Source of the DNA: Deltaproteobacteria bacterium HGW-Deltaproteobacteria-1
GTDB taxonomy: Bacteria; Desulfobacterota; Syntrophia; Syntrophales; Smithellaceae
Length of the DNA stretch: 51,028 nt
Assembly: GCA_002840635.1 (NCBI GenBank)
Contig: PHBN01000038.1
Span: 1 to 51,028, forward strand
Reading direction: 5' to 3'
Shown: positions 1 to 51,028 of the stretch, in pieces
Position numbering within the stretch: the first letter of the stretch is position 1
Layout of the letters: the number at the start of each line of letters is the position of its first letter
Position numbers and translations under genes: made by a program
Notes under the pieces: generated by a model
What the model was told of the DNA's origin: nothing
The model's input: only the letters and a program-made list of their open reading frames with translations
Databases searched by the model: none

Positions 1-222
1 GAAATGACAATTTACGCATCTGGAGGCGTCATTGACTTCGGGGGGGTGATAGCCTTTTTTGTTAAAGACGGAAGAGACCCGCAAAACCTGGCGGGGACAA
101 TTGGCAATGCAAAAACCGCAGCCCTTGCAGCGGTCTTCAATCACAATGACCTGTCCCTGCCTTTTTTTCCGGGATCCATTTTCATCTTGGGGATTGATTT
201 GGTATTTCTTTGTTTTCTGCAT
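1..222 (-). CDS. 4Fe-4S dicluster ferredoxin-domain protein, 5' part only (runs off the window); resembles delta subunits of 2-oxoacid:ferredoxin oxidoreductases
   Basis: Own translation from ATG at 222..220: MQKTKKYQINPQDENGSRKKRQGQVIVIEDRCKGCGFCIANCPRQVLRVSSVFNKKGYHPPEVNDASRCVNCHF... It has a CxxCxxCxxxCP motif plus the start of a second cluster motif. It is absent from the ORF track because no stop lies inside the window. Confidence 0.6.
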   Translation of the reverse strand, partial: MQKTKKYQINPQDENGSRKKRQGQVIVIEDRCKGCGFCIANCPRQVLRVSSVFNKKGYHPPEVNDASRCVNCHF

Positions 223-369
223 TGATTTAACACAATTCCCCTGCATAATTGAATTATACAAGGCGACCTGCCGGATGGATTAATTTGCTTGAATATCGGG
301 GATTTGTACAGGAGACGCTTCCCTAAAGTACCAAATTCCATCAAATGCGTGCAAAGTTGCTAAAAAGGC

Positions 370-396
370 ATTATAAGAATAACGAGGCTCTGTCAA
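370..396 (-). promoter_or_regulatory. sigma70-like promoter candidate for the ferredoxin gene
   Basis: Minus strand reads TTGACA (396..391), a 15-nt spacer, then TATAAT (375..370), about 150 nt upstream of the ATG at 222. The spacer is shorter than optimal. Confidence 0.3.
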
Positions 397-502
397 GAAA
401 AAAAGAGTAATGATTACTGGTTTGTGCCTATCATTCTCTTGTGATATTAAAGCTTTCCGAATTTTCTTTTCCGGCTGGCAACAGAATGACCGGCATATCC
501 AA

Positions 503-2530
503 TTAGATTTTAACCCAGCGTGCCGCTACTAGGGATGTCAGATTTGAGATCGTCCCCAGGATCCGGCGCTGTTCGGGGAGGAGATTTTTAAATTCGTATT
601 GCATACCCACTACACCTAATATCTCTTCATCCTGGGATTTAATCGGCAGAAAGCAGTAGGGGATACTCGGCAGCGTTTCCGTTCCCGCGCCGGCAATTTC
701 CCCGTGAGCAAATGTCCACTTAGCCACGGCCAGGTCATTTTGGTTAATTTCCAAATCCGGGTTGCTCTTAGCCCACAACTGTAAATCGCCTTTCTTTTCT
801 TTAAAGAGAACAAAGCAGGGGACATTAATGACCTTCTGAATATACTTGATCGTAATATTGCTGATGTCATTGATAATGGTCGTTCGCAGGAAGGCCAGGG
901 TGTTCATGGTTTCCTGCGAAAACGCAGCCAGTCCTTCCACCAATTGTTCCAGTGGGGGAAGGGTTAAGAATTCCTTGCTCATCTCTTCAATTAGAACAAC
1001 TCTCTCCAGCCTTAATTGCAGCGCGATGTTCTGTTTTTTTACAATCTTTACCAACTGACCGATTATTATTGCGGTAAAAAGGAAAACCAGTACATTGATT
1101 ATTTCTTTGGGATCTTTCATGGTAAAATTGTATCTGGGTATGGTGAAGAGAAAATCATAAATTAACAGACTTACGATTGAAGTAAATATGGACGGCCACA
1201 TTCCAAATAACAAAGCACTAACACTTGTAGCGATCAAATAGATATAAACCAGCGAAGACGGATCAACGATGCGTTGGAGAATCAGGTTAATCATGGTGAT
1301 CATCACAATCATGCCAAGTGCTTTTAAATAAGGTGACACGTTAAATGCCGCTCGTCTGGGGGGAGGAAGGATATCTTCTTTTTTCTCCTCAATGGTTGGC
1401 GTAATGAGATGGAGCTCGAAATCACCTGCGGCGCGAAGAAGACGGGAAGTGGGGGATCTTTTGAAAAATTCAACAATCGCCGGGCGTAGCGGTTTACCGA
1501 TGACAATTCGGGTAATGTTATTTTCCGTGGCAAAACGAATAATTTCCTCGGCAACATCATCGCCGGAAAGCGTCATGATTTTTGCGCCCAGTTCTTCGGC
1601 AAGATTGAGGGCATCCGTTAAATAAATTTTTGCCCGGCCCGATGGTTCGGTCAGCCCGGTAGGTAGAACATAAACGGCATACCATTCGGCATGAACATTC
1701 TTGGCAATGGCATAAGCCTTGCGGATGAGCTGTTTGGCATAGGGACTGTCCGCGATACAAACAACCAGCTTTTCCGTAGCAGGCCAGGGGCCGGCAATCG
1801 CCTTTGCCCTCATATAATTAATGAGCTCGCTGTCCATTTTCCGGGCAACCAGAGTCAACATGAGTTCGCGTAGCGCAAACAGATTGCCCCGCTGAAAAAA
1901 ATTATCAATGGCGCGCTGGGCCTGCGCAGGAAAATAGACCTTCCCCTCCTTTAATCTCTGGAACAGTTCTTCCCAGGGAATATCAACAACCTGCACCTCG
2001 TCGGTGCGGTCAAAAAAAGTGTCCGGCAATGTTTCCTGCATGCGTACGCCGGTGATCTTGGCCACAGCGTCATTCATGCTCTCAAAGTGCTGGATATTGA
2101 CGGTAGTGTGCACATCAATTCCATGTTCCAGTAACTCTTCAATATCCTGATACCGCTTGGGGTGGCGGCTGCCCTCGATATTGGTATGGGCAAGTTCATC
2201 AACCAGAACAACCGCAGGATGCCTTGTCAGAATTGCATCCAGATCCATTTCACTGACCAGAAGGCCTTTATATTCAATAGACTTTCGGGGTATGACTTCC
2301 AGGCCGGCAAGCAGTGCGTCAGTATCGGCGCGCTTGTGTGTTTCGACAATACCCGCGACGACATCCACGCCGCGTTTTTTCAATACGTGGGCCTCATTGA
2401 GCATGGCATATGTTTTGCCGACTCCCGGCGCATAGCCCAGAAATATTTTCAACCTTCCCTTTTTGACATCATCCTTTTCGATTTCTTTCAAAAGGGCATC
2501 GGGATCGGGTCTTAAATCTTTTTCTTCCAT
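503..2530 (-). CDS. kdpD: KdpD-type sensor protein without the histidine-kinase half (KdpD N-terminal domain, Usp-like domain, 4 TM segments, GAF-like domain)
   Basis: 675 aa. The N-terminus GRLKIFLGYAPGVGKTYAML is the KdpD P-loop signature. A hydrophobic block (MIVMITMINLIL...FLFTAIIIGQLV) is followed by a GAF-like end ...LLPEQRRILGTISNLTSLVAA. No HisKA or HATPase motifs are present, and the ORF stops where E. coli KdpD continues into the kinase. Confidence 0.85.
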   Translation of the reverse strand: MEEKDLRPDPDALLKEIEKDDVKKGRLKIFLGYAPGVGKTYAMLNEAHVLKKRGVDVVAGIVETHKRADTDALLAGLEVIPRKSIEYKGLLVSEMDLDAILTRHPAVVLVDELAHTNIEGSRHPKRYQDIEELLEHGIDVHTTVNIQHFESMNDAVAKITGVRMQETLPDTFFDRTDEVQVVDIPWEELFQRLKEGKVYFPAQAQRAIDNFFQRGNLFALRELMLTLVARKMDSELINYMRAKAIAGPWPATEKLVVCIADSPYAKQLIRKAYAIAKNVHAEWYAVYVLPTGLTEPSGRAKIYLTDALNLAEELGAKIMTLSGDDVAEEIIRFATENNITRIVIGKPLRPAIVEFFKRSPTSRLLRAAGDFELHLITPTIEEKKEDILPPPRRAAFNVSPYLKALGMIVMITMINLILQRIVDPSSLVYIYLIATSVSALLFGMWPSIFTSIVSLLIYDFLFTIPRYNFTMKDPKEIINVLVFLFTAIIIGQLVKIVKKQNIALQLRLERVVLIEEMSKEFLTLPPLEQLVEGLAAFSQETMNTLAFLRTTIINDISNITIKYIQKVINVPCFVLFKEKKGDLQLWAKSNPDLEINQNDLAVAKWTFAHGEIAGAGTETLPSIPYCFLPIKSQDEEILGVVGMQYEFKNLLPEQRRILGTISNLTSLVAARWVKI

Positions 2531-2550
2531 GAGGTTACCTTTGTACTAGT

Positions 2551-3129
2551 TTACCGCTGAACCGCGATACTCTCAAGATCAATATTCAATTGTAAAACGT
2601 TGACCCGTTCCATTCCCCAAATCCCCAGAAGAGGGCCTTCCGTGTTTTGATGGATTATTTTTTCGATGACGGATTGGGGAATCTTTCTTTCCCGGGCGAT
2701 TCGTGATGCCTGGATTCGTGCGGCTTCTACACTGATATGCGGATCAAGACCGCTTGCGGACGACAGCACCAAATCGGCGGGAATGGGCATATTCGAGGGC
2801 AATCCATTTTCCCTGCGAACGAGTTCAATACGCCCTTGGACCTGCTTTAATAGTTTTGCGCTGGATGGCGCCAGATTACTTGCCGACGAATTACTCGCGT
2901 CATAGGGGGGATCAATGGCGGATGGCCGTCCATGAAAATATTCAGGGCGGTTGAATGATTGCCCCAGAAGCTTTGATCCAATGACGATGTCGTTTTGTTT
3001 AATGATACTGGCATTGGATTGCCGGGGAAATACGGTTTGTGATACTGCCGTTATGGCGAGTGGATAAATCAATCCGCAAATGATTGATAATCCCGCAAAA
3101 ACCAGGATGGACCGTTTCAGTTGCAACAT
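2551..3129 (-). CDS. kdpC: potassium-transporting ATPase subunit C
   Basis: 192 aa with a single N-terminal TM segment and conserved KdpC motifs ([13 protein letters not shown]). AGGAG lies 8 nt upstream of the ATG. It sits between kdpB and kdpD. Confidence 0.9.
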
Positions 3130-5158
3130 ACCGCATCTCCTTTATAATAAGTGTAACGTCGATATTAGAAGACGTCGATATTAGAAGATCAATTATTTTT
3201 ATGCCGGCAAAAGGCAGTATTAACCCTCCTATGCCGTAAATTCCGAGATTCCGGCGCAGCAGAGCTGACGCGTTAGATGGAATATAACGCACACCGCGCA
3301 GCGCCAGAGGAATCAGTATGGGTATGATGATGGCATTGAAAATTACTGCCGAAAGAACGGCGCTTTCGGGACTGGAAAGATGCATGATGTCGAGTATTCT
3401 GAGCTGAGGATAGCCAACAATAAAGATGGCCGGGATGATGGCAAAATATTTAGCCACATCATTGGCGACACTGAAAGTTGTCAGCGCGCCTCGGGTTATG
3501 AGAATCTGTTTGCCGATTTCCACCAGATCCAGAAGCTTGGTCGGGTTGGAATCCAGATCAACAATGTTGGCGGCTTCGCGGGCTGCCTGTGTTCCGGCAT
3601 TCATTGCCACGGCGACATCCGCCTGAGCCAGCGCCGGCGCGTCATTTGTGCCATCGCCGATCATGGCTACCAGATGTCCTTTCTCCTGATAGTTGCGAAT
3701 CAGCTCCAATTTTGTCGCCGGTTTGGCCTCGGCCACAAAATCATCGACACCCGCCTCCGCCGCAATGGTGGCCGCGGTCATCGGGTTATCGCCGGTAATC
3801 ATGATGGACTTAATCCCCATTTGCCTGAGTTTGGCAATCCGGCCGCTGATACCCTCTTTGAGAACATCTTTGAGGCGAACCGCGCCGAGAATTTGTTCAT
3901 CCTGCGCAATCAAAAGGGGCGTTGAACCTTCGGCGGCAATAGATGCCACAATATCCTGTGCTTTGGCTGGCAATGGATTGTTCTGCGCTGAAATAAAATC
4001 CCTCACCGCGTCAAACGACCCTTTTCTGATTCGATGACTGTTCCAGTCGATACCGCTCATCCGCGCCTCGGCGCTAAAGGGAAAAAAGACAGCACCTTCG
4101 GGAGCCCGGATATCACTGCCGCGCATGCCCAGTTTTTCTTTTGCCAGAACAACAATACTTCTTCCTTCCGGCGTATCATCAGCAAGAGAAGATAATAACG
4201 CGGCATTGATTAATTCCTTCTCTTTCCCCTCCGTGAGAGCAATAAACTCCGTTGCCATTCTATTGCCCAGCGTGATCGTGCCGGTTTTATCCATGAGCAC
4301 CACATCGACATCTCCCGATGCTTCCACAGCCCGGCCACTTGTCGCTATAAAATTGTACTGTAACAATCTATCCATGCCCGCTATTCCTATGGCCGGCAAT
4401 AATCCACCGATGGTTGTGGGCATTAAGCACACCAGAAGGGCAATGAGCATGGCCGCGTCAACAGGTACGCCCATGTAAGCGGCAAAATATTTTAAAGTGA
4501 CAACCACAACGATAAATACAACAGTCAGCGCTATTAAAAGCAGATTGAGCGCCCGTTCATTGGGCGTTTTTTGTCTTTTCGCGCCCTCAACCATGCCGAT
4601 CATCTGATCGAGAAAACTTTCCCCGGGATTGGCGGTAATGCGAACGGTTATTTTTCCAGAAAGCACGCGGGTGCCCCCGGTCACACCGCTGCGGTCTCCT
4701 CCGTATTCCCGAATGACGGGCGCGGATTCTCCGGTGATGGCCGATTCATCTATCAGTGCCGTCCCGACGGCCACTTCACCATCTCCGGGGATCGTGTCGC
4801 CGTCTTCAAGAAGGATCAGATCTTCTTTTTTCAACTGCAGGGCGGATATGGTTTCTATACTGCCGTCATTCAATAGCCGTTTTGCTTTGGCCTCGGAGCG
4901 GTTCTTTTTGTCGGCAAAATTGGCAAATATAAGCGTGAACCACAGCCACAAGGTAATCTGCAAATCAAAGGTCATCCCGTGGCCGGTAAAAATATCATAT
5001 ATAACAATAAACGTCGTTGCGATGGTCACTATCTCCACAATAAACATCACGGGACTTTTAATCATCATCAGCGGATTGAGCTTTGTAAGCGATTCCTTCA
5101 GCGCGGGGATGATAAACTTTGTCTGCCAGATCTTGATTTTTTTCGATTTCATTTTCAT
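2999..5158 (-). CDS. kdpB: potassium-transporting P-type ATPase subunit B; 3' end altered by a 16-bp duplication (ancestral stop at 3142..3144)
   Basis: P-type ATPase motifs are present: [36 protein letters not shown]. The ORF as given reads 130 nt into kdpC. See the findings for the duplication and for a probable missing AEGRGKAQA segment. Confidence 0.9.
3156..3187. repeat. perfect 16-bp tandem duplication (ACGTCGATATTAGAAG x2) inside the kdpB 3' end
   Basis: Read directly: 3156..3171 is identical to 3172..3187. Confidence 0.95.
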
Positions 5159-5163
5159 TTACC

Positions 5164-6831
5164 TCAAAACGTCTTGCCGATAGCTAAAAGCAGGTGTTCC
5201 AACAGTGGCCCCAATGTTAAGACCGGGAAAAATGTCAACGCTCCGACAACGATAACAACCGCAATCAGCATGAAGGTGAAAAGCAGACTGGCTGTCGGAA
5301 AAGTCGCCACACTTTCTGGAACAATTTTCTTCTCGGCAAGATTTCCTGCAATCGCCAGGGCTGGAAGAATCGTGGAAAACCGTCCGATCAGCATTGCCAA
5401 AGAAGTTGTCAGATTATAAAAAACCGTATTGGCATTGAGTCCGGCAAAGGCAGAACCGTTATTGCCGGAGGCCGAGGCAAAAGCATAAATAATTTCGGAT
5501 AATCCATGCGGCCCGGTATTGCCGAGGCTGGCGACACCCGCCTGTGTGGAGACAGCGATACTCGACAAGATCAGTTGCAAAATAGCGGGAGTTACGATAA
5601 TCACCACCGCCATGACCATTTCCAGAAGCTCCAGTTTTTTACCCATGAATTCCGGAGTCCGGCCGATCATCAATCCTGCCAGAAACAGCGTCAGAATGGC
5701 ATAACTCAGCATGCCGATGAGGCCGGTTCCGACTCCGCCGAAAATGACTTCGCCGATCGCCATATTAAACAACAGAACTATCCCGCTCAAAGGCAGCATG
5801 CTGTCGTGCATACTGTTGACGGCTCCACAGGACGTAACCGTCGTGGACTGGGCAAACAAAGCAGAATTCACGACGCCGAATCGGGTTTCCTTGCCTTCCA
5901 TATTCATTCCAGATGCGATCCCTGCTTTTTCCAGCAGCGGATTGCCCCGCATTTCCGTCCAGGCAAAAATCCCCAGTCCGGTCAGATAAAGGATCATCAT
6001 GGCTGCAAAGACAGCAAAGCCCTGCCGCCTGTTTTTCAACATCGCACCCAGTGTGAAGGGCAGGGCCGCGGCAATCAGCAGCAGTCCCAGCACTTCTAAA
6101 AAATCCGTGAGCGGCGTCGGGTTTTCGAAGGGATGAGCGGAGTTGGTATTAAAGAATCCACCGCCATTCGTGCCGATTTGCTTGATCGCTCTTCCCTCCA
6201 AAGTCCTGGCCTCAATGGAAGGACTCAAGGTTTGTACAGCGCCCTGCGAAACCAGAATGAACGATAAAATTACGACAAGCGGCAGCAGGACGTATAAAAT
6301 ACAGCGGGTCAAATCCACCCAGAAGTTACCGATGGCCGCCGCTGATTTACGGACAAAGCCGCGGATAACGGCAATGACCGCGACAATGCCGATCGCCGCG
6401 GAAATAAAGTTCTGTACGGTCATGCCCATCATCTGCGTCAGGTAACTCATCGTCCGCTCGCCGCTGTAGGTCTGCCAGTTTGTATTGGTGCCGAAAGAGA
6501 CAGCGGCATTGAGTGCCGTATCCCAGCGCACAGCGCCAAATTTCTGCGGATTAAAGGGAAGCCAGCCCTGAATCAGTTGCAAACAGAATAACGCCACAAT
6601 ACCGATGACATTCAAAAGAACCAGGCAGAGAGTATACGTTTTCCAGGACATTTCTTCATTGGGTTCCACGGTAAATATCCTGTAAAGGAATCTTTCGACA
6701 GGCGCTATAACCGGCGAAAGAAATGTTCTATCGCCGCTGAAAACCTTCGCCATGTATATACCCATGGGATAAGCCAGGATCGTTATAATAAAGGGAAACA
6801 GAATGAGGCACAGCCAGTTACCTGTTGTCAT
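5164..6831 (-). CDS. kdpA: potassium-transporting ATPase subunit A
   Basis: 555 aa polytopic membrane protein with KdpA selectivity-filter-like motifs (NTNWQ, TNGGGFF, SCGAVN, SGNNGSAFAG). It lies directly upstream of kdpB. Confidence 0.93.
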   Translation of the reverse strand: MTTGNWLCLILFPFIITILAYPMGIYMAKVFSGDRTFLSPVIAPVERFLYRIFTVEPNEEMSWKTYTLCLVLLNVIGIVALFCLQLIQGWLPFNPQKFGAVRWDTALNAAVSFGTNTNWQTYSGERTMSYLTQMMGMTVQNFISAAIGIVAVIAVIRGFVRKSAAAIGNFWVDLTRCILYVLLPLVVILSFILVSQGAVQTLSPSIEARTLEGRAIKQIGTNGGGFFNTNSAHPFENPTPLTDFLEVLGLLLIAAALPFTLGAMLKNRRQGFAVFAAMMILYLTGLGIFAWTEMRGNPLLEKAGIASGMNMEGKETRFGVVNSALFAQSTTVTSCGAVNSMHDSMLPLSGIVLLFNMAIGEVIFGGVGTGLIGMLSYAILTLFLAGLMIGRTPEFMGKKLELLEMVMAVVIIVTPAILQLILSSIAVSTQAGVASLGNTGPHGLSEIIYAFASASGNNGSAFAGLNANTVFYNLTTSLAMLIGRFSTILPALAIAGNLAEKKIVPESVATFPTASLLFTFMLIAVVIVVGALTFFPVLTLGPLLEHLLLAIGKTF

Positions 6832-7104
6832 TGTAATCTCCTTAATCGTCTTGAGCTATTTTCGCAATTCTCTAAAAAAATAATATAATATCGTTGATTT
6901 GAAAGATGAAGAGCCCCAATAAAATAAAAATATCCGGTATTGAGGCCTGCCTGCAAACAGGAGTTGTGTATTGTCAGGATAGTTAGGCGATATCAGGGCA
7001 TCTGATATGGTTAGATAAGACAGATATGTTTGCACACTGCTTTCTGGACACAGGAAATGTCGAAAAAGCTGCAAAAGAAGAACATTAGACATTTCTTCTT
7101 ATTT

Positions 7105-7215
7105 CCCCCTATATGCCGACGAGGTTAGCTGACGGGCTCGGACTGGGAAATGTCCTATTCTTCGTGTATCAGGCCAAATATTATTAGATCACACCCTCGG
7201 GAAAGAGATAGGCCT
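7105..7215 (-). promoter_or_regulatory. c-di-AMP (ydaO/kimA-class) riboswitch-like leader of the kdp operon; only the 3' conserved strand is recognised
   Basis: The minus strand at 7147..7115 reads CCCAGUCCGAGCCCGUCAGCUAACCUCGUCGGC. The core CCGUCAGCUAACCUCGU matches my recollection of the invariant 3' segment of the ydaO motif. An upstream GGGUGUGAUC resembles the GGGGUGAAUC element. The 5' half was not recognised. Confidence 0.45.
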
Positions 7216-7216
7216 G

Positions 7217-7876
7217 TTGATGGAAGACATTAAAATTAATGATATTGTTAAAATCCTGAAAAAAGAATTGAACCTGGGAGAAATGCCCATTGTGTCCCAC
7301 CTTGCGGAAAGCGAACGCGATCCTTTTGTCATTTTGATATCCACACTGCTCAGCCTGCGAACGAAAGACGAAGTCACAGCTATGGCGACTGAAAGGCTCC
7401 TTGCTCTGGCATCCACTCCCGAAGCAATGTTGAAGGTTCCCCAGGACAAAATCGCCAGGGCTATCTACCCCGTAGGATTTTACCGCAACAAGGCCAGGGG
7501 CATTCACCATGTCTGCCGCGAACTCATTGGCCGGTTTGACTCAAGGGTACCGGATGATCTGGATGAATTGCTGAGCATCAAGGGCATCGGCCGCAAAACA
7601 GCTAACCTGGTCATCACACTGGCTTATGGAAAAGATGGTATCTGCGTGGACACACATGTCCACCGCATCTCCAACCGCCTGGGTTATGTGGTCACCAAAA
7701 CACCGGATGAAACGGAAATGGTCCTGCGAGCCAAACTTCCCCGGAAATACTGGATTATTTACAACACCCTGCTGGTCTTCTTCGGCCGTAAAACCTGCAA
7801 GCCGGTCTCGCCTATTTGCAGTACCTGCCCAATTAGTCGATATTGCGACCGCGCGGGCGTCACCATAAGCCGATAA
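7217..7876 (+). CDS. nth: endonuclease III (DNA glycosylase/AP lyase)
   Basis: HhH-GPD motif (LLSIKGIGRKTANLV), catalytic region VDTHVHRISNRLG, and a C-terminal 4Fe-4S ligand pattern CKPVSPICSTCPISRYC. The ATG at 7220 is the likely start. Confidence 0.9.
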   Translation: MMEDIKINDIVKILKKELNLGEMPIVSHLAESERDPFVILISTLLSLRTKDEVTAMATERLLALASTPEAMLKVPQDKIARAIYPVGFYRNKARGIHHVCRELIGRFDSRVPDDLDELLSIKGIGRKTANLVITLAYGKDGICVDTHVHRISNRLGYVVTKTPDETEMVLRAKLPRKYWIIYNTLLVFFGRKTCKPVSPICSTCPISRYCDRAGVTISR

Positions 7877-8505: not shown

Positions 8506-8591
8506 GATTTGTGCTTTTCTGTCTCCGCAATCTGCAAAACCAATCTGATGATCAGCAGGAACGCGGTGAATGAATTAGGGTTTAAGTTGCT

Positions 8592-14654: not shown

Positions 14655-15517
14655 TTGCGAATCAGCGCGCTTCTGTTTCTGTTGTTTTTGATGCTTTGCT
14701 TTGCCGCACTCTGCCTGGGCGCCATCCACATCGCTCCCGCTGACGTATTCAGGGCGGTTTCCGGCGCGATTTTCGGCAACGCGTCCGGTACATCCGAAGA
14801 AGAACTGATCTTATTTTCCGTGCGGCTACCGCGGATTTTATTTGCCGGCATCGTGGGTGCGTCATTGTCGCTAGGAGGAGTTGTTTTTCAGGCGCTTTTG
14901 CGCAATCCGCTGGCTGATCCCTATGTGCTGGGCATTTCCGGCGGTTCAGCGCTTGGTGCGATTGTCGGCATTGTTGTCGGCGCAGCTTCCTTTTATCTGG
15001 GCGTTCCCTTTCTGGCCTTCTGCGGCGCGCTGGCGACCGTTTTTCTGGTTTTTATTGTGGCTGGCGGTTCCAGAGGTGTGCTTCTGGACAATTCGCTTCT
15101 GCTGGCCGGTGTTGTGGTGAACTCCTTTTTCTCCGCTGCGATTCTCTTTGCTCTTTCCGTTGTCAACAGCATGGAACTGCACAGCATCAGCTTCTGGCTC
15201 ATGGGCGATCTTTCCCGGGCGTCCCTGAAGGAGATTTTCGGAACCGCTTTATGTTTCGCGGCATGTTTCGTCCTGCTTTACACTCAGGCCCGCAAACTGA
15301 ATTTAATCGTTCAGGGGGAAGAAACCGCCCTGCAGCTCGGTGTTAATGTCCTGGCGACGAAGTATCTTTTGCTAATTGTCACGTCATTGATCACGGCCAT
15401 TGCTGTTTCATTCGCCGGTATTATCGGTTTCATCGGTATCATGGTTCCGCACATGATGCGCCTGGTGTTCGCGCTCCCTATTTTATTTTTCTCATGAGAA
15501 GAAAGGGGCGCGGATAA
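14655..15517 (+). pseudogene. FecCD-family ABC permease (BtuC/HmuU-like) with an internal gap and frame change near 15471
   Basis: The protein is normal up to ...GFIGIMVPHMMRLVF. The canonical C-terminal end APYFIFLMRRKGRG-stop, with TAATG overlap onto the next gene, sits in another frame. About 45 conserved codons (the DHR...LPxG...T region) are missing relative to E. coli BtuC as I remember it. Confidence 0.75.
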
Positions 15518-16295: not shown

Positions 16296-16383
16296 AGGCT
16301 GTTCAATAAAAGGAAGCCGGTTTAAATCCGGCGCTGCCCCGCAACTGTAAGCGGAAAGCGCAGAAGGGCAACTCCCGGGAAGA
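16296..16383 (+). promoter_or_regulatory. cobalamin riboswitch, 5'/core portion only
   Basis: AAAAGGAAGCCGGTTTAAATCCGGCGCTGCCCCGCAACTGTAAGCGG fits the conserved core AGGGAA..GGTG.AA..CC...GC.G.CCCGC.ACTGTAA. No B12 box or expression platform is recognisable before coding sequence begins. Confidence 0.6.
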
Positions 16384-18433: not shown

Positions 18434-18578
18434 TCCCGCTTGCGCGGGACGAGCGTTAATTCTCTGCAGCTTGCTGTGATATAATAACGTTCATTTCATA
18501 CCTCGACAACTTGCTGCGATGTGGTTGATTGACCGTTCCGTAAGGCCGTTTTATGGCAGATGTTGATGTGAGCAAAAA

Positions 18579-20556: not shown

Positions 20557-20600
20557 AGGGCGCTTCGACAGGCTCAGCAACCGAAGGATGAAGGGAAATC

Positions 20601-25952: not shown

Positions 25953-25969
25953 TAATTGACCTTTATTAT

Positions 25970-33739: not shown

Positions 33740-33751
33740 AAAGAGGAATTC

Positions 33752-36153
33752 ATGGAAGTTTCACGCATCCGGGCCCTGCGGGGTCCCAACCTGTGGAGTC
33801 GGAATACGGCCATCGAGGCCATCGTTACGTGCAACGAGAACGAGCGCTCCCTCGACGCCCTCCCCGGTTTCGAAGAACGCCTGCGGGAACGATTTCCGGA
33901 AATTGGTTTTCTGAATGCCACCGGTCATTACAAAGATGTGCCCCTGGCCCGGGTCCTGGAATTTTCCGTTCTGGGCCTGCAGGCCCAGGCCGGTTGTCCT
34001 GTGACCTTCAGCCGCACATCGGAGACCATCAATAGTGGCACCTACCAGGTGGTGGTCGAATACAGCGAGGAAGATGTCGGACGGCTTGCCTTCGATCTGG
34101 CCGAACAACTCATCAAGGCCGCACTTGAAAATAAGCCCTTCGACCGTGCCAACGCTCTTAGCCGCCTCAAGAAATTGGATGAGAATGTCCGCCTCGGCCC
34201 CTCCACTGCCTCCATCGTCGAGGCCGCTGTTTCCCGTGGCATCCCTTACCGCCGACTGACCCAGGGCAGCCTCGTACAATTCGGCTGGGGCAGCAAGCAG
34301 CGTCGCATTCAGGCCGCCGAGACCGATCTCTCCAATGCCATTGCCGAATCCATTGCCCAGGATAAAGAACTAACCAAGCAATTACTGCATGCCACGGGTG
34401 TGCCGGTGCCTTTGGGCCGCCCGGTCACCAGCGCTGAGGATGCGTGGACCGCCGCCCAGGAAATCGGCGGCCCGGTAGTGGTGAAACCCCGTTATGGCAA
34501 TCAGGGTAAAGGCATTTCGGTCAACATCCAGACATGCGAGGAGATCACGGCGGCCTATAACACGGCCATCGAATTTTGCGATGAAGTCCTGGTGGAGCGT
34601 TACCTGCCGGGTCACGACTACCGCTTCCTGGTCATCGGCAACAAGCTGGTTGCCGCTGCCCGCCGCGACCCGCCACAGGTAATCGGTGATGGTATACACA
34701 CCGTGCGCGAATTGGTCGACCAGGTGAACGCCGATCCGCGTCGCGGCGAAGGCCATGCCACGTCCCTTACCAAGATCCGCTTTGATGACATCGCCCTGTC
34801 TCGCCTGGTCATGCAGGGTTTCGACGCCAACTCCGTGCCGCCCAGAGGCACCCGCATCATCCTGCGCAACAATGCCAACCTCTCCACCGGTGGCACCGCC
34901 ACCGACATCACCGACGACGTCCATCCGGAACTGGCTGCCTGCGCAGAGGCCGCCGCCCAGACCGTTGGCCTCGACATCTGCGGTATCGATGTAGTCTGCG
35001 AGACGGTATTGAAACCCCTGGAAGAACAGGGAGGCGGCATCGTCGAGGTGAACGCGGCCCCCGGCCTGCGCATGCACCTTTCGCCCTCCTATGGCAAGGG
35101 TCGCCCTGTGGGGGAAGCCATCGTTTCCATGATGTTCAAGCCGGGTGAGGATGCCCGCATTCCTGTCGTGGCTGTTGCCGGGACGAACGGAAAGACCACT
35201 ACAACGCGCCTCATCAGTAATATCCTGGCCAGGAACGGCAGGCGTGTGGGCCTGACCAGTACCGACGGCGTCTACGTTGAAGGCAGGCGTATTGACAGAG
35301 GTGACTGCAGCGGCCCTAAAAGCGCTCGCAACGTCTTACTGCATCCCTGTGTAGACATTGCCGTGTTTGAGACCGCACGTGGCGGCGTGCTGCGTGAGGG
35401 TCTCCGGCGATGGCTGCCACCTGCCCGGGTAGTGTCATCTACTTCGCCCGCGACAGCTTCCATCCGGTCATAGCTACTCACCGCGCTCAGGGGAAACGTG
35501 TGGTCTATGCCGAAGGCGACTACATCGTCCGTGCCGAAGGCAGGGACGAGCATCGTATTCCCCTTGCTGCCATCCCCATCACCGGCGGCGGCACCTTCGG
35601 CTTCCAGATCGAGAATGCCATGGCGGCCACGGCAGCCTGCTGGGCCCTGGGACTGTCCTGGGACACGATCTCCGCCGGTCTTGCTGGCTTCGTGAACGAC
35701 GCCCGGACGGCGCCTGGACGGTTCAACGTCTTCAACTACCACGGCGCCACTCTCATCGCCGACTACGGGCACAATCCGGACGCCATCCGGGCACTGGTCG
35801 ACGCCATAGAGACCATGCCGGCCAAAAAGCGGTTGGTGGTCATCAGTGGCGCCGGTGATCGCCGCAATGAAGATATCCGCCGTCAGACGGAAATTCTCGG
35901 CACCGCCTTCGACGAGGTCATCCTTTACCAGGATGCCTGCCAGCGCGGCCGTCAGGATGGTGAAGTCCTGACCCTCCTGCGTGAAGGCCTCTGCGGGGCC
36001 GAACGCACCTGCCACATCGAGGAGATCTACGGCGAGTTTCTGGCCATTGATAATGCCTTCAACCGCCTCAAAAGAGGCGATCTCTGCCTGATCCTCATCG
36101 ACCAGGTGGAAAAGGCCCTTGATCACATCGCCAGACGCATCGCCGAGGACTGA
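33752..36153 (+). pseudogene. cphA: cyanophycin synthetase paralogue 2 (full architecture) with an internal gap and frame change at ~35404-35409
   Basis: LRGPNLWSRNTAIEAIV, LGPSTASIVEAA, P-loop GTNGKTTT. After ARGGVLREGL the frame changes and resumes at AATCPGSVIYFARD. About 57 codons that are present in paralogue 1 and in reference CphA are absent. The C-terminal PGRFNVF...DYGHNPDA...GAGDRR region is intact. Confidence 0.85.
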
Positions 36154-40014: not shown

Positions 40015-40197
40015 CTAGAAAAGCAGCCAGATCGCAATCAGCGGCACGAGGTTAAGCATGATGACGGCGATTTTATAAATGGCCAGACCCGCGTAGTGAA
40101 TGGCATCGAATGTCTCAACAGGGATTTTGAACCAGCGGCTGTGCAATTTGACAGTGACACAAAAAAGAAGAAAATCCTTGATTTCATTTGTTGTCAT
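40015..40197 (-). CDS. small two-TM membrane protein, hypothetical
   Basis: 60 aa. GGAGG lies 7 nt upstream of the ATG. The C-terminus is hydrophobic (IAVIMLNLVPLIAIWLLF). Confidence 0.5.
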   Translation of the reverse strand: MTTNEIKDFLLFCVTVKLHSRWFKIPVETFDAIHYAGLAIYKIAVIMLNLVPLIAIWLLF

Positions 40198-40327
40198 GAT
40201 AAACCTCCGTGGAATTCTTTAAGAGATTATTTATTTCACGAGCTGTCATTCATGAAGTTCAAACAATCCACTGACGGCAATCTTTTATCGAGCCTCCGCC
40301 AACCTGTTGTCTGTCAGCAAGGAAGCA

Positions 40328-40692: not shown

Positions 40693-41269
40693 CTAATCCA
40701 CTCCCTGCACCTTAAAACGCCTGCGGAATTCCCGTGGCCGTTCGTATTCCGGCAGCGACCATATTCCTCTTTTTGCTGATCTTGCTTCCCTGCGGGCATC
40801 AAGAAACGGTTTCCGGTAAGGATATCGAAGGAATTCAATATAAGTGTCCGCGTATCCTTCCCTGAGCATTTCCAGATTGATATTTCTGTTTTCCAGCCGG
40901 ATAACTCCAACCATGCGTCTATACTGGTCAACTTCAATAATGTCCAGTTTCACCTTATTGCCGAGGAGTTTATTTTTAAGAGCTCTGCCTGATTCTTTTC
41001 CATAGGATTGTCCGGGGATATTCATTCGACCGGTCCGGTAATCGATTTTAGGCGTTTCGGGCGCATCAATGCCATACAGCCTGACCCTGAGGATGGTTTG
41101 ATTCGGTGTTGTTAATTGAATTGTGTCGCCGTCATACACCCGGGTGACCGTTCCTTTCACTGTGCGGAGCGTGTCGGAATAAACAGTCGATTCTGTAAAT
41201 AGTGCGAGGAAAATGAAGACAGGTGTTAAGAAAAAAAAAATTAACGAGAAATCCTTTTGACCGCATCAT
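40693..41269 (-). pseudogene. secreted thermonuclease (SNase-like); signal-peptide exon out of frame because of an A10 run
   Basis: Catalytic part VTRVYDGDTIQL...VRLYGIDAPE...EARSAKRGIW (the 40693..41160 ORF). Upstream, the ATGATG at 41269 encodes MMRSKGFLVNFFF. This joins LTPVFIFLALFTESTVYSDTLRTVKG in frame only if the run 41231..41240 were 9 nt. Confidence 0.75.
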
Positions 41270-44958: not shown

Positions 44959-47485
44959 TCAATGGGTCAGAAGCTTTTCCAGTGCCGGGAAAACTTGACT
45001 TAGATTTTCCGGCTGGCTTCCGCCGGCCTGGGCCATGTCGGGGCGGCCGCCGCCTTTGCCGCCAACGATAGGGGCCAGTTCCTTGATGATGTTGCCGGCG
45101 TGGTATTTTCCGGCCAGGTCCTTGGTGATCATGCACAGGAGCATTGCTTTATCGTCCGCCTTGCTGCCCAGAAGAATGATGCCCGACGCCATTTTGTCGC
45201 GCAGCTTGTCGCCGAAGTCGCGCAGGGTTTTAGCATCGGAAATGTTCACTTCCTCCGCAAGCACGTTCACGCCTGCAATTTCCCTTACCCGGTTCATCAG
45301 GTCTCCGGAATCCTTCGCGGCAAGCTTTCCTTTCAGACCTTCAATTTCTTTTTCGAGTTCTCTGACGTTCTTGAGCAGTTTTTCGGCCCGGTCATAAACT
45401 TCAAAGTGTCCCGCCTTGAACAGGCCCGCCGTCTGTTGTAATTCTTCTTCGGCTTTTTGAATGTGCAAAACGGCTTCCCGGCCGGTGACGGCTTCGATTC
45501 TTCGAACGCCCGCGGCAATGGCCGATTCATGAACGATTTTCAAAAGTCCGATGTCTCCGGTTCGCTCCACGTGCGTTCCGCCGCAAAGTTCCATGCTCAT
45601 TTCGCCCATTTTCACAATGCGTACGGTCGCGCCGTATTTTTCGTCAAACACCGCTGTGGCGCCCGTCTTAAGGGCGTCTTCCAGCGTGCAGACTTCCGTC
45701 TGAACCGTCAGGTTTTTGCGGATCATGTCGTTGGCGATGGTTTCCACGCGCCGAAGTTCTTCATCGCTGATTTTGGAAAAGTGGAATGGCTTTTCGTCTT
45801 TCCGGATCGACCGTTAAATTTGCTGTTGCGCCGATTTTGATTTCGCCGCTTTTCACCACGCCCTTGTGGACGATGAAGTTCTCGACCGGCTTTTTTGTAT
45901 CCAAAACGGTGAAATTGAAGTCAGTTCCTTCCAGGTATCCTGAGTCTCCTGACTGACCGCCTGATTCGCCGTAAAAAGTCGTGGCATCCAGGACAATTTC
46001 GGCCTGTTGCCCCTCGCGTGCAATTTCCGCCGGTTTGCCATCCACAAAAATAGCTGTAACTTTCGTCTGTTCTTTAGTTACGCCTTCATAACCGCAAAAC
46101 TCGCTGAGGATTCCGGAACTTGATACTTTCAGGTAGCATTCGGCGACGGCCTCTTCGCCACTGCCTTTCCAGGCGCCGCGGGCACGTTCCCGCTGCTGTT
46201 CCATTTCGGCCTCAAAGCCCTCATTGTCCAGCGTAAAGCCGTCACGCTTGACAATGTCCGCCGTTAAATCGGTCGGGAATCCAAAAGTATCATAGAGCTT
46301 GAAAATCAGTGAACCCGGCAAAACCGATTTGCCCGCCTGTTTGAGCAACTCTGTTTCGTCCTGCAAAATGCGCAGCCCCGCGTCCAGTGTCTCCATGAAA
46401 CGCTGCTCTTCGTTGAGAATCACTTTGGTAATGTAGGAGGCTTTATCGGCCAGATCCGGATACGTGTATTTCATCATGTCGATGACGATCATGGCCGCCT
46501 TGTTCAGGAACGGTTTATTGATGCCGAGCATTTTCCCGTGGCGGGCGGCGCGGCGCAGGATGCGGCGCAGCACATAGCCGCGGCCTTCGTTCGACGGCAT
46601 AATCCCGTCGCCTATTAAGAATGTGACGGCACGGCTGTGATCCGCAATGACGCGGACGGAGATATCATGATCAGTATTTTTGCCGTAGATTTTGCCGGAT
46701 GCTTTTTCGACAAAATGGATGAGCGGTGCAAACAGATCGGTATCGTAGTTGCTTTTGACACCCTGGATGACAGCGGTGAGGCGCTCCAGCCCCATGCCGG
46801 TATCAATGCTAGGCTTGGCCAGCGGAGTCAACTTGCCGGTTTCATCGCGGTCGTACTGTGTGAAAACGTTGTTCCATATTTCCAGGTGGCGGTCGCAGTC
46901 GCAATAAACATCGCATTCGGGACGGTCGCAGCCGGTGCCTTCGCCCTGGTCATAGAGGATTTCGGAACAGGGGCCGCAGGGGCCGGTTTCCCCCATCATC
47001 CAGAAATTGCTTTTTTCTCCCATACGGACGATGCGTTCCTTGGGCACTTTCATTTTTTCGTGCCAGATTTTAAAAGCCTCGTCGTCGTTTTCAAAAATTG
47101 TCACCCAGAGTTTATCTTTGGGCAGTTTGACCACGTCGATGAGATATTCCCACGCCCAGGAAATCGCATCTTCCTTGAAATAGTCGCCGAAGGAAAAATT
47201 GCCCAGCATTTCAAAGAAGGTGTGATGGCGCGCGGTAACTCCGACGTTTTCCAGGTCGTTGTGCTTGCCCCCGGCGCGTGCGCATTTCTGGCAGGAGACG
47301 GCCCGCGTATAACCCCGGTTCTCAAGGCCGAGAAATGCGTTTTTAAACTGCACCATTCCCGCGTTGGTAAAAAGGAGGGTGGGGTCATCCTTGGGAATCA
47401 GCGATGAACTTGGAACCCGCGTGTGTCCCTTGCCTTCAAAAAATTTAATAAAACTTTCCCGTATTGCGTCGCCTGTTTTAACCAT
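44959..47485 (-). pseudogene. alaS: alanine--tRNA ligase with an internal gap and frame change at ~45784
   Basis: N-terminal piece 45761..47485 (FTNAGMVQFK, class II motifs) and C-terminal piece 44959..45747 (ELCGGTHV, DHHA1-like end). The junction reads VDPERRKAI | HFSKISDEELRRVETIAN. About 39 codons, including the editing-domain H-x-x-x-H region, are absent. Confidence 0.85.
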
Positions 47486-48011: not shown

Positions 48012-48860
48012 CTTTCTCTATAGCTGCAAGTACATCCGGATTATCTTTAAGGAAAACCCGCGAATTATCGCGTCCCTGGCCCAGCCGGTCGCCCTTATAG
48101 GAATACCAGGCTCCGCTTTTTTCAACAATGCCGTTTTCCGCCGCGAGGTCCAGCACATCGCCTTCGCGCGAGATGCCTTCGCCAAAAATGATGTCAAATT
48201 CCGCTTCCCGGAAAGCGCATTGCCGCCTGTTGTGGTTTCGGGATTGCCGAAAAAGACGCCGATTTTCATGCGCAGCTGATTGATGAAAATAACGGTCGTT
48301 TTGGATTTGCTGATGCTGCCGGTGAGTTTGCGCAGTGCCTGCGACATGAGGCGCGCCTGCAAGCCCATCTGGGCATCGCCCATTTCCCCTTCGAGCTCCG
48401 CCTTGGGGACCAGCGCCGCCACGGAATCGACGACCAGCACGTCGAGCGCTCCGCTGCGCACCAGCGTCTCGGCGATTTCGAGGGCCTGTTCACCGGTGTC
48501 CGGCTGGGAGATCAGGAGTTCGTCTGTGTTGACGCCGATTTTTTTTGCGTAGGTCATATCCAGGGCGTGCTCTGCGTCAATGTAAGCCGCGATGCCGTTT
48601 TTCTTTTGCGCCTCGGCGACGATGTGCAGCGCCAGCGTCGTTTTCCCGCCGGATTCCGGCCCGTAAATCTCCACTACCCGGCCGCGTGGAACACCGAACG
48701 TCCCCAGAGCAATGTCGAGGCTCAGCGAGCCGGTGGAAATGGCCGGTACGTCCGCCACGCGATCATGGCTGCCCAGTTTCATGATGGATCCCTTGCCGAA
48801 CTGCCGTTCAATCTGCGTGATTGCCAAATCCACCGCTTTTGATCTGTCCACCTCCTTCAC
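47965..48860 (-). pseudogene. recA: recombinase RecA with an internal gap and frame change at ~48211-48214
   Basis: N-terminal 48018..48860 ([41 protein letters not shown]). C-terminal 47965..48156 continues in another frame from [30 protein letters not shown]. About 39 codons ([12 protein letters not shown]...KNK.APP in E. coli) are missing. Confidence 0.85.
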
Positions 48861-48956
48861 CCTTTAATTTGTAATTTATTTTTCAAATATTTCCTGGATT
48901 CCAGATCGCACTTCGTTTGTCCGGAATGACCAGATGGTAAAATCGTTGCTGCGCCT

Positions 48957-49538
48957 TTATCCCGCCGGGAATGCCGCCAGTTTTGTATAAACTGCTCCCT
49001 GCGGCATCAGGCGGCTCTGAAACAGGACCAGTTCCCGGCAGACAAATTCTCCGGCGGTAAATGCGCCGTGTTTGGCAAGGGCTTCGCCGATTCCCGATAC
49101 TCCGCGTGGATCTTTGATCCGGGCCAGTGTTAAATGCGCCCGAAAAGGCCTGTCTTCTTCAGGAAACCCGAGAGCATCAAAATCGATGTCCAGCTGTTTC
49201 TGGAGGACAGAGAGTTGCGCCACATCGCCTGCCATGCCGCACCAGAGAACCCGGGGTTTGCGGGCATCCGGAAACACGCCCAGTTTTTCCACTTTCAGAT
49301 TCAGGGACAATCCCGATGCCACCCGGTTTTGCACAGCGGCGGAAATCTTATCCACGTCCTCCATCGAAACATCGCCAAAGAACTTCAATGTGAGGTGCCG
49401 CCCCTCCGGCCTCGTCCAGCTTATTTTGCCGCTTACATCGCGTTTCAGTTTTTCCTGCAGGCCCGACATTGCCTGCAAAATATCTTCAGGAGGCTCAATG
49501 GCCAGAAAGGCGCGGATATTTTTTTCGGCATTTGCCAT
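48957..49538 (-). CDS. thpR: RNA 2',3'-cyclic phosphodiesterase (2H family, LigT/ThpR)
   Basis: Two H-x-T-x motifs (HLTLKFFG and HLTLARI). 193 aa. Confidence 0.85.
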   Translation of the reverse strand: MANAEKNIRAFLAIEPPEDILQAMSGLQEKLKRDVSGKISWTRPEGRHLTLKFFGDVSMEDVDKISAAVQNRVASGLSLNLKVEKLGVFPDARKPRVLWCGMAGDVAQLSVLQKQLDIDFDALGFPEEDRPFRAHLTLARIKDPRGVSGIGEALAKHGAFTAGEFVCRELVLFQSRLMPQGAVYTKLAAFPAG

Positions 49539-50785
49539 CAGACCTTATCCTGTAAATAGTTTTTCAGCATCATCAGCGCCACCTCGGAGGACACCAGCTT
49601 GTTTCTTTTGCGGTCCCAGCGGAATGCATGATGTCGGCAAACCGTTTGGTTGCCATCGGCCAGCGCCACGTAGACTGTGCCGACCGGTTTTTCTTTGCTT
49701 CCGCCGGTGGGGCCTGCAATACCGGTGGATGAAAGGCCGATATCGGTATTCGCAATTTTGCGGACGCCTTCGGCCATCAGGCGCGCCGTTTCTTCGCTTA
49801 CGGCGCCGTGCTTTTCAATGATATCGGCAGGAACGTTCAGCATGCTGATCTTCGCTTCATTGCTGTAGGTTACAAGGCCGCGTTCAAAATAAACGGAGCT
49901 GCCGGAAACATCGGTGAGGCGATTGGCAATCAAACCTCCCGTGCAGGATTCTGCAACGGCTATGGTCAGTTTCTTTTCGGTCATCGCCCTGGCGATAATT
50001 TCTTCCAGCGTCTGCTCACCGTAGGAAAAAATATAATCGGAAAGGCGAGCCGTCACTTCATCCTGTGCTTTTTGCAGATTTTTTTGCGCCAGTTCTAGAG
50101 AGTCGGACCGCGCAATCAACACCAGATGGTTTTCCGGGAAAACGGGATAAAACCCGACGCTCACGTCCAGGTCTTCAAAATTTACATCCGCCAACTTTTG
50201 GTCCACCGCTCCTTCGCCCAGCCCGAATGTTTTAATGGTCTGTTTGAGTGTATGTCCGACGGGCTGCGGAAAATGTCGGCGCAATACCGGAATAACGCCT
50301 TCAGGCAGCATTCGTTGCGTTTCGGAGGGAACGCCGGGAATCACAAAAACCAGTTTGCCGTTCACCGGCAAAGCAAAGCCCGGTGCCGTACCAACCGGAT
50401 TGACGATTACTTCCGAGCCTTGAGGAAACACGGCTTGTTTGGCGTTATTCTCTATCCATTGAAAATTGTATTTGGCAAATCTGTCTTTGATGCCCTGCAA
50501 AACGGCCTCATCCGTGAACAGCGGCAGATCAAAAGCCTGGGCAATTGCGGCCGTGGTAATATCATCAGCAGTCGGGCCAAGACCGCCGGTGCAGATCACC
50601 GCGTCGGTGAGTGTCAGCAGATCATGCAGGCGGCTTTTGATGGCGGCAAAGTCGTCGCCCACCGACATCATGATTTCAACTTGCCAGCCCTGCAGACTGA
50701 TCTCCCGGGCAATAAACGATGAATTTGTATCGGCAGTACGTCCGCTCATCAATTCGTTGCCGATGGTTAATATTCCAATCTTCAT
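49538..50785 (-). CDS. cinA: CinA-family protein (MoCF-like domain plus nicotinamide-nucleotide amidohydrolase PncC domain)
   Basis: 415 aa. MKIGILTIGNELMSGRTADTN at the N-terminus and AVAESCTGGL in the C-terminal domain. Confidence 0.88.
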   Translation of the reverse strand: MKIGILTIGNELMSGRTADTNSSFIAREISLQGWQVEIMMSVGDDFAAIKSRLHDLLTLTDAVICTGGLGPTADDITTAAIAQAFDLPLFTDEAVLQGIKDRFAKYNFQWIENNAKQAVFPQGSEVIVNPVGTAPGFALPVNGKLVFVIPGVPSETQRMLPEGVIPVLRRHFPQPVGHTLKQTIKTFGLGEGAVDQKLADVNFEDLDVSVGFYPVFPENHLVLIARSDSLELAQKNLQKAQDEVTARLSDYIFSYGEQTLEEIIARAMTEKKLTIAVAESCTGGLIANRLTDVSGSSVYFERGLVTYSNEAKISMLNVPADIIEKHGAVSEETARLMAEGVRKIANTDIGLSSTGIAGPTGGSKEKPVGTVYVALADGNQTVCRHHAFRWDRKRNKLVSSEVALMMLKNYLQDKV

Positions 50786-51028
50786 AGAACACCTGTTAAT
50801 TTTAATAAGAACAATACCAATCCGCCGTATACACCGGCACCGAGATCATCGGCCACCACGCCCCATCCTCCCGGGAACTTTTGAAAACGGTTCAGCGGAA
50901 AGGGCTTCCAGATATCAAAAATCCGAAACAGAACAAACGCCAGCAGAAGATGCAGGCCGGTGATGGCCACCGGCAGCATTGTGACCTGAACGCCGGCGAT
51001 TTCATCAATGACAATCCGTTGATCATCT
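50782..51028 (-). CDS. pgpA: phosphatidylglycerophosphatase A, 3' part (5' end outside the window)
   Basis: ...IVIDEIAGVQVTMLPV...FRIFDIWKPFP...GGWGVVADDLGAGVYGG are PgpA signatures. Its stop overlaps the cinA start. Confidence 0.8.
   Translation of the reverse strand, partial: DDQRIVIDEIAGVQVTMLPVAITGLHLLLAFVLFRIFDIWKPFPLNRFQKFPGGWGVVADDLGAGVYGGLVLFLLKLTGVL

Follow-up and report, generated by a model that had tools for sequence, protein, structure and literature searches.

Genomes in reductive decay with mass pseudogenisation, such as those of Mycobacterium leprae and of recent insect symbionts like Sodalis, accumulate a mixture of lesions: premature stop codons, frameshifts of 1 bp, inserted IS elements, and deletions of any size. 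Selection on them is relaxed, and their aminoacyl-tRNA synthetases stay intact. Interrupted genes are also produced by assembly: scaffolds of metagenome-assembled genomes (MAGs) from assemblers of the IDBA-UD type contain local misassemblies and faulty joins, through which erroneous gene sequences reach databases (Chen, Anantharaman, Shaiber, Eren & Banfield 2020, Genome Res 30:315, PMC7111523). The same paper describes the mirror-image error, in which true overlaps remain unmerged and sequence is duplicated at the join, and gives as an example a 1.13-Mb genome with 13 errors.

The window analyzed here, a stretch of 51,028 nt, is one scaffold, the longest of the 558-piece MAG assembly of Deltaproteobacteria bacterium HGW-Deltaproteobacteria-1. 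As in reductive decay, many conserved genes appear interrupted genome-wide; unlike in decay, the join-type lesions of the assembly are nearly all co-linear gaps of 10 to 273 nt, dN/dS is ≤0.09, and alaS is among the genes hit. A fragmented scaffold, N-runs of variable length, probable errors at contig joins, and incomplete or wrong public genes are shared with the cases of Chen et al. (2020), but the lesions are much denser here than in the published example (~1 per 9 kb of coding sequence versus 13 in 1.13 Mb). In addition, a gap underestimate of ~150 to 390 nt, which would erase the Ns of short gaps, is seen here and is not described in PMC7111523. Scaffold gaps marked by N likewise represent unassembled sequence between read-pair-linked contigs, whereas the gaps in the window carry no N and look like deletions when neither a reference nor reads are at hand.

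The assembly, a metagenome bin built from short reads and scaffolded by read pairs, is fragmented into 558 scaffolds with an N50 of 9.7 kb; its record serves as a species representative. Its completeness is 83%, and its completeness/contamination profile fits that of an ordinary metagenome bin. Every lesion was compared with at least one close relative and most with two independent ones. These were the same-genus MAGs G005 and G002 (~90 to 95% nucleotide identity to the window; the record of G002 is titled “scaffold_45864”), G038 (84% nucleotide identity), the complete same-genus genome G006, and the JGI metagenome contigs Ga0105104_10002024 and Ga0316605_10002541 (~92% identity to the window), with G003 and G008 for some genes. 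To find the same population in an independent assembly, the recX protein was looked up exactly, with no match; a metagenome scan yielded only contigs of ~92% identity, and a scan of genome contigs only G002.

Lesions in the window

A preliminary description of the window had reported multiple lesions in conserved genes, including alaS, and comparison with relatives placed 11 of its 12 listed lesions in the deposited sequence. Four unlisted ones were found, at 24875, 40150, 48851, and 12816. The orthologue alignments and microhomology check that it had proposed showed that the missing segments are present in relatives and private to the window's assembly, every sized gap being filled in one to six relatives (the two JGI contigs among them), and that the junctions are clean, with microhomology of 0 to 2 nt only. 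With so little microhomology, deletion between direct repeats, whether by replication slippage or by collapse of a de Bruijn graph, was rejected. A constant deletion size tied to k-mer length, hinted at by the similar gaps in alaS (116 nt) and recA (118 nt), was rejected, as other gaps span 8 to 273 nt.

The alaS gene (44959 to 47485, minus strand) lacks 116 nt at the junction 45784/45785, as seen in alignments with G002, G005, G003, G008, and both JGI contigs; a gap of ~39 codons had been proposed at ~45784. The reading frame shifts at the gap, and the beginning of the editing domain (positions 554 to 605 of the NCBIfam alaS profile) is lost. alaS is single-copy in the assembly, and its sole locus is the broken one, in an assembly that is 83% complete. 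The recA gene (48018 to 48860, minus strand) lacks 118 nt at 48213 to 48215, close to the ~39-codon gap previously suggested at ~48212; the frame shifts past profile position 211 of 321, and the segment is filled in the same six relatives as for alaS. A further 23-nt gap at 48850/48851 (minus strand), unlisted before, takes out the recA ATG start codon and spacer; G002, G005, and the Ga0105104 contig all carry this segment. The relaxed selection expected of pseudogenes was found neither in alaS (dN/dS of 0.09 upstream and 0.07 downstream of the frameshift) nor in recA (dN/dS of 0), by a test that is blind to a very recent deletion.

Two plus-strand gaps lie among the B12-uptake genes. The gene for a BtuC/FecCD-type permease (14655 to 15497) lacks 133 nt at 15470/15471 relative to G005 (contig C333) and G002 (contig C158), and the resulting frameshift costs the protein its last ~50 residues. 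The match to the NCBIfam BtuC profile ends at position 307 of 366. Downstream, 247 nt are absent at 16355 to 16357, which leaves the cobalamin riboswitch without its 3′ half and btuB (16385 to 18433) without ribosome binding site, start codon, and signal peptide. The riboswitch scores 35.4 bits against Rfam in the window versus 101.2 bits for the intact copy of G005, and the TonB-B12 profile match of btuB begins at position 25. Both losses had been recognized from the sequence, as a FecCD permease gap at ~15471 and as a missing riboswitch 3′ half and receptor signal peptide at ~16381. An intergenic gap of 8 nt at 12815/12816, where G002 and G005 carry ATTATACT, had escaped notice.

So had a 252-nt in-frame gap at 24874 to 24876 in an α/β hydrolase gene (24518 to 25192, plus strand), sized with G005 (contig C283) and G002 (contig C158) and recurring in the comparison with G006. 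The hydrolase is left without ~84 residues, and the best Pfam Abhydrolase_1 stretch covers only profile positions 1 to 89 of 245. A frame change reported at ~25510 in a membrane protein gene (25104 to 26132, minus strand) corresponds to 17 nt absent at 25514 to 25516; these are carried by G002 and G005, and the gap is also seen against G006.

Two entries of the preliminary description stood only in part. The “HIT-like fragment” at 27408 to 27590 is a fragment but not of the HIT family: it has no Pfam HIT match, with a better match on the other strand, and 27435 to 27542 (plus strand) holds the last ~36 codons of a GNAT-type gene (~290 amino acids). The odd segment of ~141 nt here (27447 to 27589, plus strand) occupies a place where G005 and G038 carry ~1.7 kb with two other genes; it may be genuine variation or a small contig put in the wrong place, and it need not share the cause of the gaps. 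The “A6 frameshift” at 27892 to 27897 is a genuine frame change, with a 70-nt gap at 27855 to 27857 (minus strand) as its cause rather than the A6 run. This gap splits a secreted-protein gene, the ORF at 27774 to 28418 being separated from that at 27643 to 27882, and adding the 70 nt found in contig C50 of G038 puts both in one frame.

The same G038 contig sized frameshifting gaps in both plus-strand cyanophycin synthetase genes, near the predicted sites (~33270 and ~35405). cphA-1 (31542 to 33739) lacks 43 nt at 33268 to 33270, which interrupts the cyanophycin synthetase profile between positions 574 and 584, and cphA-2 (33752 to 36153), an open frame of 860 amino acids in G038, lacks 169 nt at 35404 to 35410, with the profile interrupted between positions 561 and 620. 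A small membrane protein gene (Pfam DUF6868; 40018 to 40218, minus strand) has a previously unlisted in-frame gap at 40148 to 40150; the 60 nt that it lacks are carried by both JGI contigs. The A10 homopolymer at 41231 to 41240 (minus strand) is A9 in both JGI contigs, in agreement with the frameshift proposed there, and cuts off the staphylococcal-nuclease-like body at 40693 to 41160 (Pfam SNase) from its signal peptide and start codon (MMRSKGFLV...). This 1-nt difference is another kind of lesion than the gaps and need not share their cause.

In kdpB (minus strand), both reported lesions were verified. A perfect 16-bp tandem duplication at the 3′ end (3156 to 3187) is evident on direct reading and in Tandem Repeats Finder (repeat at 3156 to 3188, period 16, 2.1 copies, 100% match); the final 5 codons and the stop are thrown out of frame, and the ORF continues into kdpC. 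On direct reading, KdpB would otherwise stop 14 nt ahead of the kdpC ATG. The in-frame gap, thought to be of ~15 codons at ~4911, is one of 42 nt (14 codons) at 4904 to 4909 (~4906): the conserved ALAEGQGRAQAESL after TM2 is absent from KdpB of the window when compared with G006 KdpB (tblastn, 73% amino acid identity) and with E. coli KdpB (6hra_B; phmmer). Sized only against a 73%-identical relative, this gap possibly need not be a scaffold gap. The kdp operon as a whole is unlikely to be a chimeric misjoin; its two flanks adjoin each other in relatives, and it was taken as a real insertion.

Genome-wide pattern

The whole assembly was compared with 1.2 Mb of G006, covering 515 orthologous ORFs and 161,011 aligned amino acids. 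This revealed 55 clean, private junction deletions of 10 to 273 nt on 41 scaffolds, a few of which could be real lineage differences, as G006 is only ~70 to 85% identical to the assembly. The frame is shifted by 50 of the 55; their sizes modulo 3 split 5:23:27, a ratio biased by the folding of short in-frame gaps into one alignment by tblastn. The density is ~1 deletion per 9 kb of conserved coding sequence, whether the gene is essential or not. The reverse comparison, of G006 against the assembly, gave only 1 to 2 candidates, one of the two from an antisense ORF. Join-type events are nearly all gaps of 10 to 273 nt, with only ~4 small frame changes.

The assembly also contains 92 N-runs of 1 to 213 nt. 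In 9 of the 10 cases assessable against G006, the N-run is shorter than the true gap, by 151 to 393 nt; the exception, on C449, has 126 N for a true gap of 79 nt and lies off the offset pattern. True gaps at N-runs measure 79 nt and 192 to 482 nt, and the unmarked deletions end at 273 nt. Perfect tandem duplications with complex units of 12 to 67 nt number 39 in the assembly, that of kdpB included, versus none in 400 kb of G006, and one of 56 nt on C159 likewise disrupts a conserved gene. Other scaffolded MAGs of the genus have lesions of the same kind at different sites: alaS is short of 149 nt in G002 and split in G001, and 708 nt as well as portions of another gene are absent from G005.

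Origin of the lesions

We consider it highly probable (roughly 90%) that the lesions are collapsed, or hidden, scaffold gaps and thus an artefact of assembly rather than biology, a judgment made from sequence comparisons. It follows from the lesions being private, genome-wide, one-directional (55 versus 1 to 2), and capped in size at the N-run shortfall. The preliminary description had ranked assembly or consensus error above real decay; this ranking is supported, and the probable cause can be narrowed to scaffold joins made without N.

The lengths of the N-runs in the bin derive from estimated gap sizes, and the assembly's estimated distance between neighboring contigs is too short by ~150 to 390 nt. 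On this basis the following mechanism is proposed. Where the true gap was smaller than the offset, the estimate would fall to zero or below, and the assembler, if it handles negative distances in this way, would write the contigs end to end without N. Gaps below the offset would receive no N, which agrees with the sizes of the deletions seen. In the record, each such join would appear as a clean internal deletion of 10 to 273 nt without microhomology, with the downstream frame a matter of chance. Contig ends that truly overlap by 12 to 67 nt, joined in the same manner, would give perfect tandem duplications; the kdpB duplication is most likely of this type, two contig ends overlapping by 16 nt having been joined end to end. 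From this pattern we infer an IDBA-UD-like assembler. The organism itself would have intact alaS, recA, btuC, btuB with its riboswitch, both cphA genes, kdpB, and the rest. Against collapsed scaffold gaps stand the N-run on C449 and the density itself: with ~1 hidden join in 9 kb, there would be several times more of these than of N-runs, which requires most true gaps to be short.

A metagenome assembly is a population consensus, and strain variation commonly breaks contigs (Chen et al. 2020, PMC7111523); real deleted alleles, from a minority of defective genomes or from dead or relic DNA, might have been picked by the assembler. Such a mixed population seems very unlikely, since a deleted allele, and almost never an insertion, would be needed at ~55 of 515 genes, and a size bound at the scaffolder's gap offset would be a coincidence. 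Moreover, de Bruijn assemblers take the better-covered path, so that minority deletion alleles should seldom win. Fixed deletions in a decaying lineage, for example, a syntroph that recently became dependent on a host or partner, would mean that ~10% of conserved genes, alaS and recA included, had just been inactivated by deletions of 10 to 270 bp. The lesions do stand in the deposited sequence, and a second alaS is conceivable, since only one is seen in an incomplete assembly. Nevertheless, AlaRS is essential, no second copy is seen, and purifying selection is still strong past the alaS frameshift, which speaks against the “strikingly degraded genome” entertained previously. Decay would also leave the 39 tandem duplications unexplained, together with the near-uniformity of lesion type and size range, the latter capped at 273 nt in coincidence with the N-run underestimate, and complete genomes of the genus are without such lesions while other scaffolded MAGs have them elsewhere. 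We regard decay as extremely improbable.

Multiple displacement amplification (MDA) from a single cell or a low-biomass sample can create chimeras that fuse nearby sequences and drop what lies between, and these could have been carried into the assembly. Most joins in MDA chimeras are inverted and bridge distances that vary more widely, whereas all joins here are co-linear and span <280 nt. The completeness/contamination profile is that of an ordinary metagenome bin, with which the like pattern in other MAGs of the genus also agrees. Amplification accounts for neither the short N-runs nor the tandem duplications, and we regard it as extremely improbable. Chimeric amplification and a mixed population had both been offered in the preliminary description; neither is needed, and both leave the N-run bias unexplained. 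It is likewise extremely doubtful that some of the junctions are real, in a natural Smithella-like population, or a sub-clone or relic-DNA pool within it, with many recent, microhomology-free deletions of 10 to 270 bp, alaS and recA among the targets. Such deletions could have arisen when broken DNA was repaired in a burst of end joining, and the genomes would survive only if intact siblings cross-fed or complemented them.

Consequences for the record and the organism

Collapsed scaffold gaps would place an unmarked gap in about 1 of 10 conserved genes of a species representative record. If every ~9 kb of coding sequence holds one such join, 3.3 Mb would by extrapolation contain a few hundred. 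Whatever is built from the record takes over the truncated and frameshifted proteins: gene calls, counts of pseudogenes, estimates of completeness (83% here), reconstructed pathways, and alignments of protein families. Such joins may be detected without reads by measuring the N-runs against the true gap sizes found in a relative, as a systematic shortfall predicts both the existence of hidden gaps and their maximum size. As for the organism, its alaS, recA, B12-uptake, cyanophycin, and kdp genes are very likely normal.

Interrupted genes and the sizes of the missing segments

The break points of conserved genes were located with NCBIfam profiles, and gaps were sized on DNA against the same-genus genomes G002 and G005 (∼90 to 95% identity), G038 (84%), G003, G008, and G006, together with the JGI metagenome contigs Ga0105104_10002024 and Ga0316605_10002541 (∼92%), found by a 36-nt pattern beside the alaS junction. 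The preliminary description reported many broken conserved genes, including alaS and recA; these lesions are present, and profiles and DNA alignment to relatives revealed further ones. The alaS product matches profile positions 2 to 553 and 606 to 847 of 847, with 116 nt missing at 45784/5. RecA matches positions 1 to 211 of 321, with 118 nt missing at ∼48214, and a further 23 nt, from the recA spacer and ATG, is missing at 48851. In G003, the alaS 3' end appears to be partly duplicated on contig C6 (L009 to L012; ∼49767 to 50667), ∼740 nt from the full gene, and window positions 44959 to 45117 match two places on that contig.

The anticipated losses in the B12 region were also measured. The BtuC-type permease matches its profile up to position 307 of 366, with 133 nt missing at 15470/1, and 247 nt is missing at 16356, comprising the riboswitch 3' half, the ribosome binding site, and the btuB start and signal peptide. 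The btuB profile match begins at 25, and the riboswitch scores 35 bits, versus 101 bits for the intact G005 copy. Just downstream of btuB, a ∼103-nt intergenic repeat (18428 to 18532) has at least 40 copies in the assembly (84 to 92% identity) and occurs in many genus genomes; it matched no Rfam family at the gathering threshold and may be a MITE- or REP-like element. A shorter relative forms a 78-nt insertion in Ga0316605 at the equivalent of window position 40292. Another repeat, of ∼40 nt (20557 to 20600), lies between cobT and cobS, where relatives differ by numerous small indels, and matches many G005 and G002 contigs.

Further gaps affect an alpha/beta hydrolase gene (24875; 252 nt, in frame), a membrane protein gene (25515; 17 nt, at the frame change described near 25510), a secreted-protein gene (27856; 70 nt), a DUF6868 gene (40150; 60 nt), and an intergenic site (12816; 8 nt). 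A frame break attributed to an A6 run is real but stems from the 70-nt gap 36 nt away and not from the run. Likewise, a reported HIT-like fragment is a gene fragment, but not of a HIT protein: it represents the final ∼36 codons of a GNAT-type gene of ∼290 aa on the other strand, a full-length homologue of which lies elsewhere in G006. A ∼141-nt segment (27447 to 27589) holds this tail at the site of two genes (346 and 147 aa; ∼1.7 kb) in G005 and G038; it reflects either genuine replacement or misplacement of a small contig into the wrong gap.

Both suspected cyanophycin synthetase lesions were recovered: cphA-1 matches profile positions 1 to 574 and then 584 to 727 (43 nt missing at 33269), and cphA-2 matches 1 to 561 and then 620 to 866 (169 nt missing at ∼35405). 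These tandem paralogues (31542 to 36153; G038 contig C50 [L112], 1652 to 5539) are 45 to 47% identical to each other, and among 31 genus genomes searched, the pair was seen only in the window genome and G038, the G005 contig ending where the cassette starts. The first is shorter by nature, with a match to the profile that ends at 727 of 871; the open frames in G038 encode 770 and 860 aa.

Fourteen conserved residues of the G006 and Escherichia coli KdpB proteins are missing from window KdpB, where an in-frame gap of ∼15 codons had been proposed, and the 16-bp duplication noted in kdpB is a perfect tandem repeat at the 3' end. In G005, G002, and other members of the genus, the sequences that flank the whole kdp locus of the window (404 to 7234; a kdpD-like sensor gene, kdpC, kdpB, and kdpA) are separated by only ∼172 nt. 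G002 and G006 have their kdp operons at other positions, with only ∼70% DNA identity, and the window locus resembles a lineage-specific insertion or a second-type kdp locus gained by horizontal transfer. The A10 run suspected of a frameshift is A9 in both JGI contigs; it separates the start and signal peptide of a nuclease from its body.

The suggested orthologue alignments showed the gaps to be filled in relatives, and every junction was clean, with microhomology of 0 to 2 nt. No independent assembly of the same population was found; the metagenome contigs recovered were ∼92% identical.

Unmarked gaps across the assembly

The window spans contig C224 from end to end. This contig is the longest of the 558 pieces in an assembly of 3.30 Mb (N50, 9.7 kb; 6,982 N; completeness, 83%; contamination, 4.9%), and these figures are those of a short-read metagenome bin. 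The assembly contains 92 N-runs of 1 to 213 nt each and was therefore scaffolded with estimated gap sizes; the 51,028-nt window contains no N.

ORFs of ≥150 aa from 1.2 Mb of the complete genome G006 were searched against the whole assembly for alignment pieces that abut in the assembly but lie 10 to 273 nt apart in G006. Such junction gaps affected 55 of 515 orthologous ORFs (161,011 aligned residues), on 41 scaffolds, and changed the frame in 50 cases. With one such gap for every ∼9 kb of conserved coding sequence, about 1 conserved gene in 10 is broken. Because G006 is only ∼70 to 85% identical, a small number of the 55 events may instead represent genuine differences between lineages. A single case runs in the opposite direction: within a conserved gene, contig C6 of the window assembly (∼3127 to 3261) has ∼112 to 127 nt more than G006 (∼2211174), and the frame changes there. 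This could reflect a G006 pseudogene or a different kind of join error in the assembly.

Where both flanks aligned to G006, N-runs were 151 to 393 nt too short in 9 of 10 well-aligned cases (e.g., 37 N for 237 nt, 15 N for 268 nt, and 89 N for 482 nt). A scaffolder with such a bias would estimate a distance of zero or below for true gaps smaller than roughly 170 to 280 nt and would write both contigs end to end without N; we infer that the assembly program handles negative distances in this way. The hidden deletions span 10 to 273 nt, the range expected from this bias, and are therefore called hidden scaffold gaps; N-marked gaps start at ∼190 to 240 nt, with one outlier. By the same behavior, truly overlapping contig ends would be written twice. 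Perfect tandem duplications of complex 12- to 67-nt units number 39 in the assembly versus 0 in 400 kb of G006; the kdpB duplication is one of them, and a 56-nt example on C159 disrupts another conserved gene.

Genuine decay or assembly error

Genuine genome decay, with real deletions, is very improbable. The assembly has a single alaS, and dN/dS against G005 is 0.09 upstream and 0.07 downstream of the alaS frameshift and 0 for recA, so any real deletion would be very recent. Other scaffolded metagenome-assembled genomes of the genus carry the same type of lesion at different sites: alaS lacks 149 nt in G002, a scaffolded wetland-soil genome whose isolate name occurs in PMC8084988, and is split in G001. 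From G005, 708 nt of a nitroreductase gene is absent, as are large portions of a gene intact at 27774 to 28418 in the window. In contrast, complete genomes lack such lesions, the reverse search of assembly ORFs against G006 giving two candidates, one from an antisense ORF.

Assembly error, already the preferred cause in the preliminary description, is backed by the genome-wide gaps, short N-runs, and tandem duplications and can be narrowed: with a probability of about 0.9, the window lesions are collapsed scaffold gaps and not a biological feature. Other causes may apply to the A10/A9 difference, to the ∼141-nt segment, and to the 42-nt kdpB gap, for which the only size reference was a protein of 73% identity. 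Chen et al. (PMC7111523) describe local assembly errors and scaffolding joins with overlapping flanks and warn that errors left uncurated propagate incorrect gene sequences to databases; the window assembly is a dense instance of this error class.
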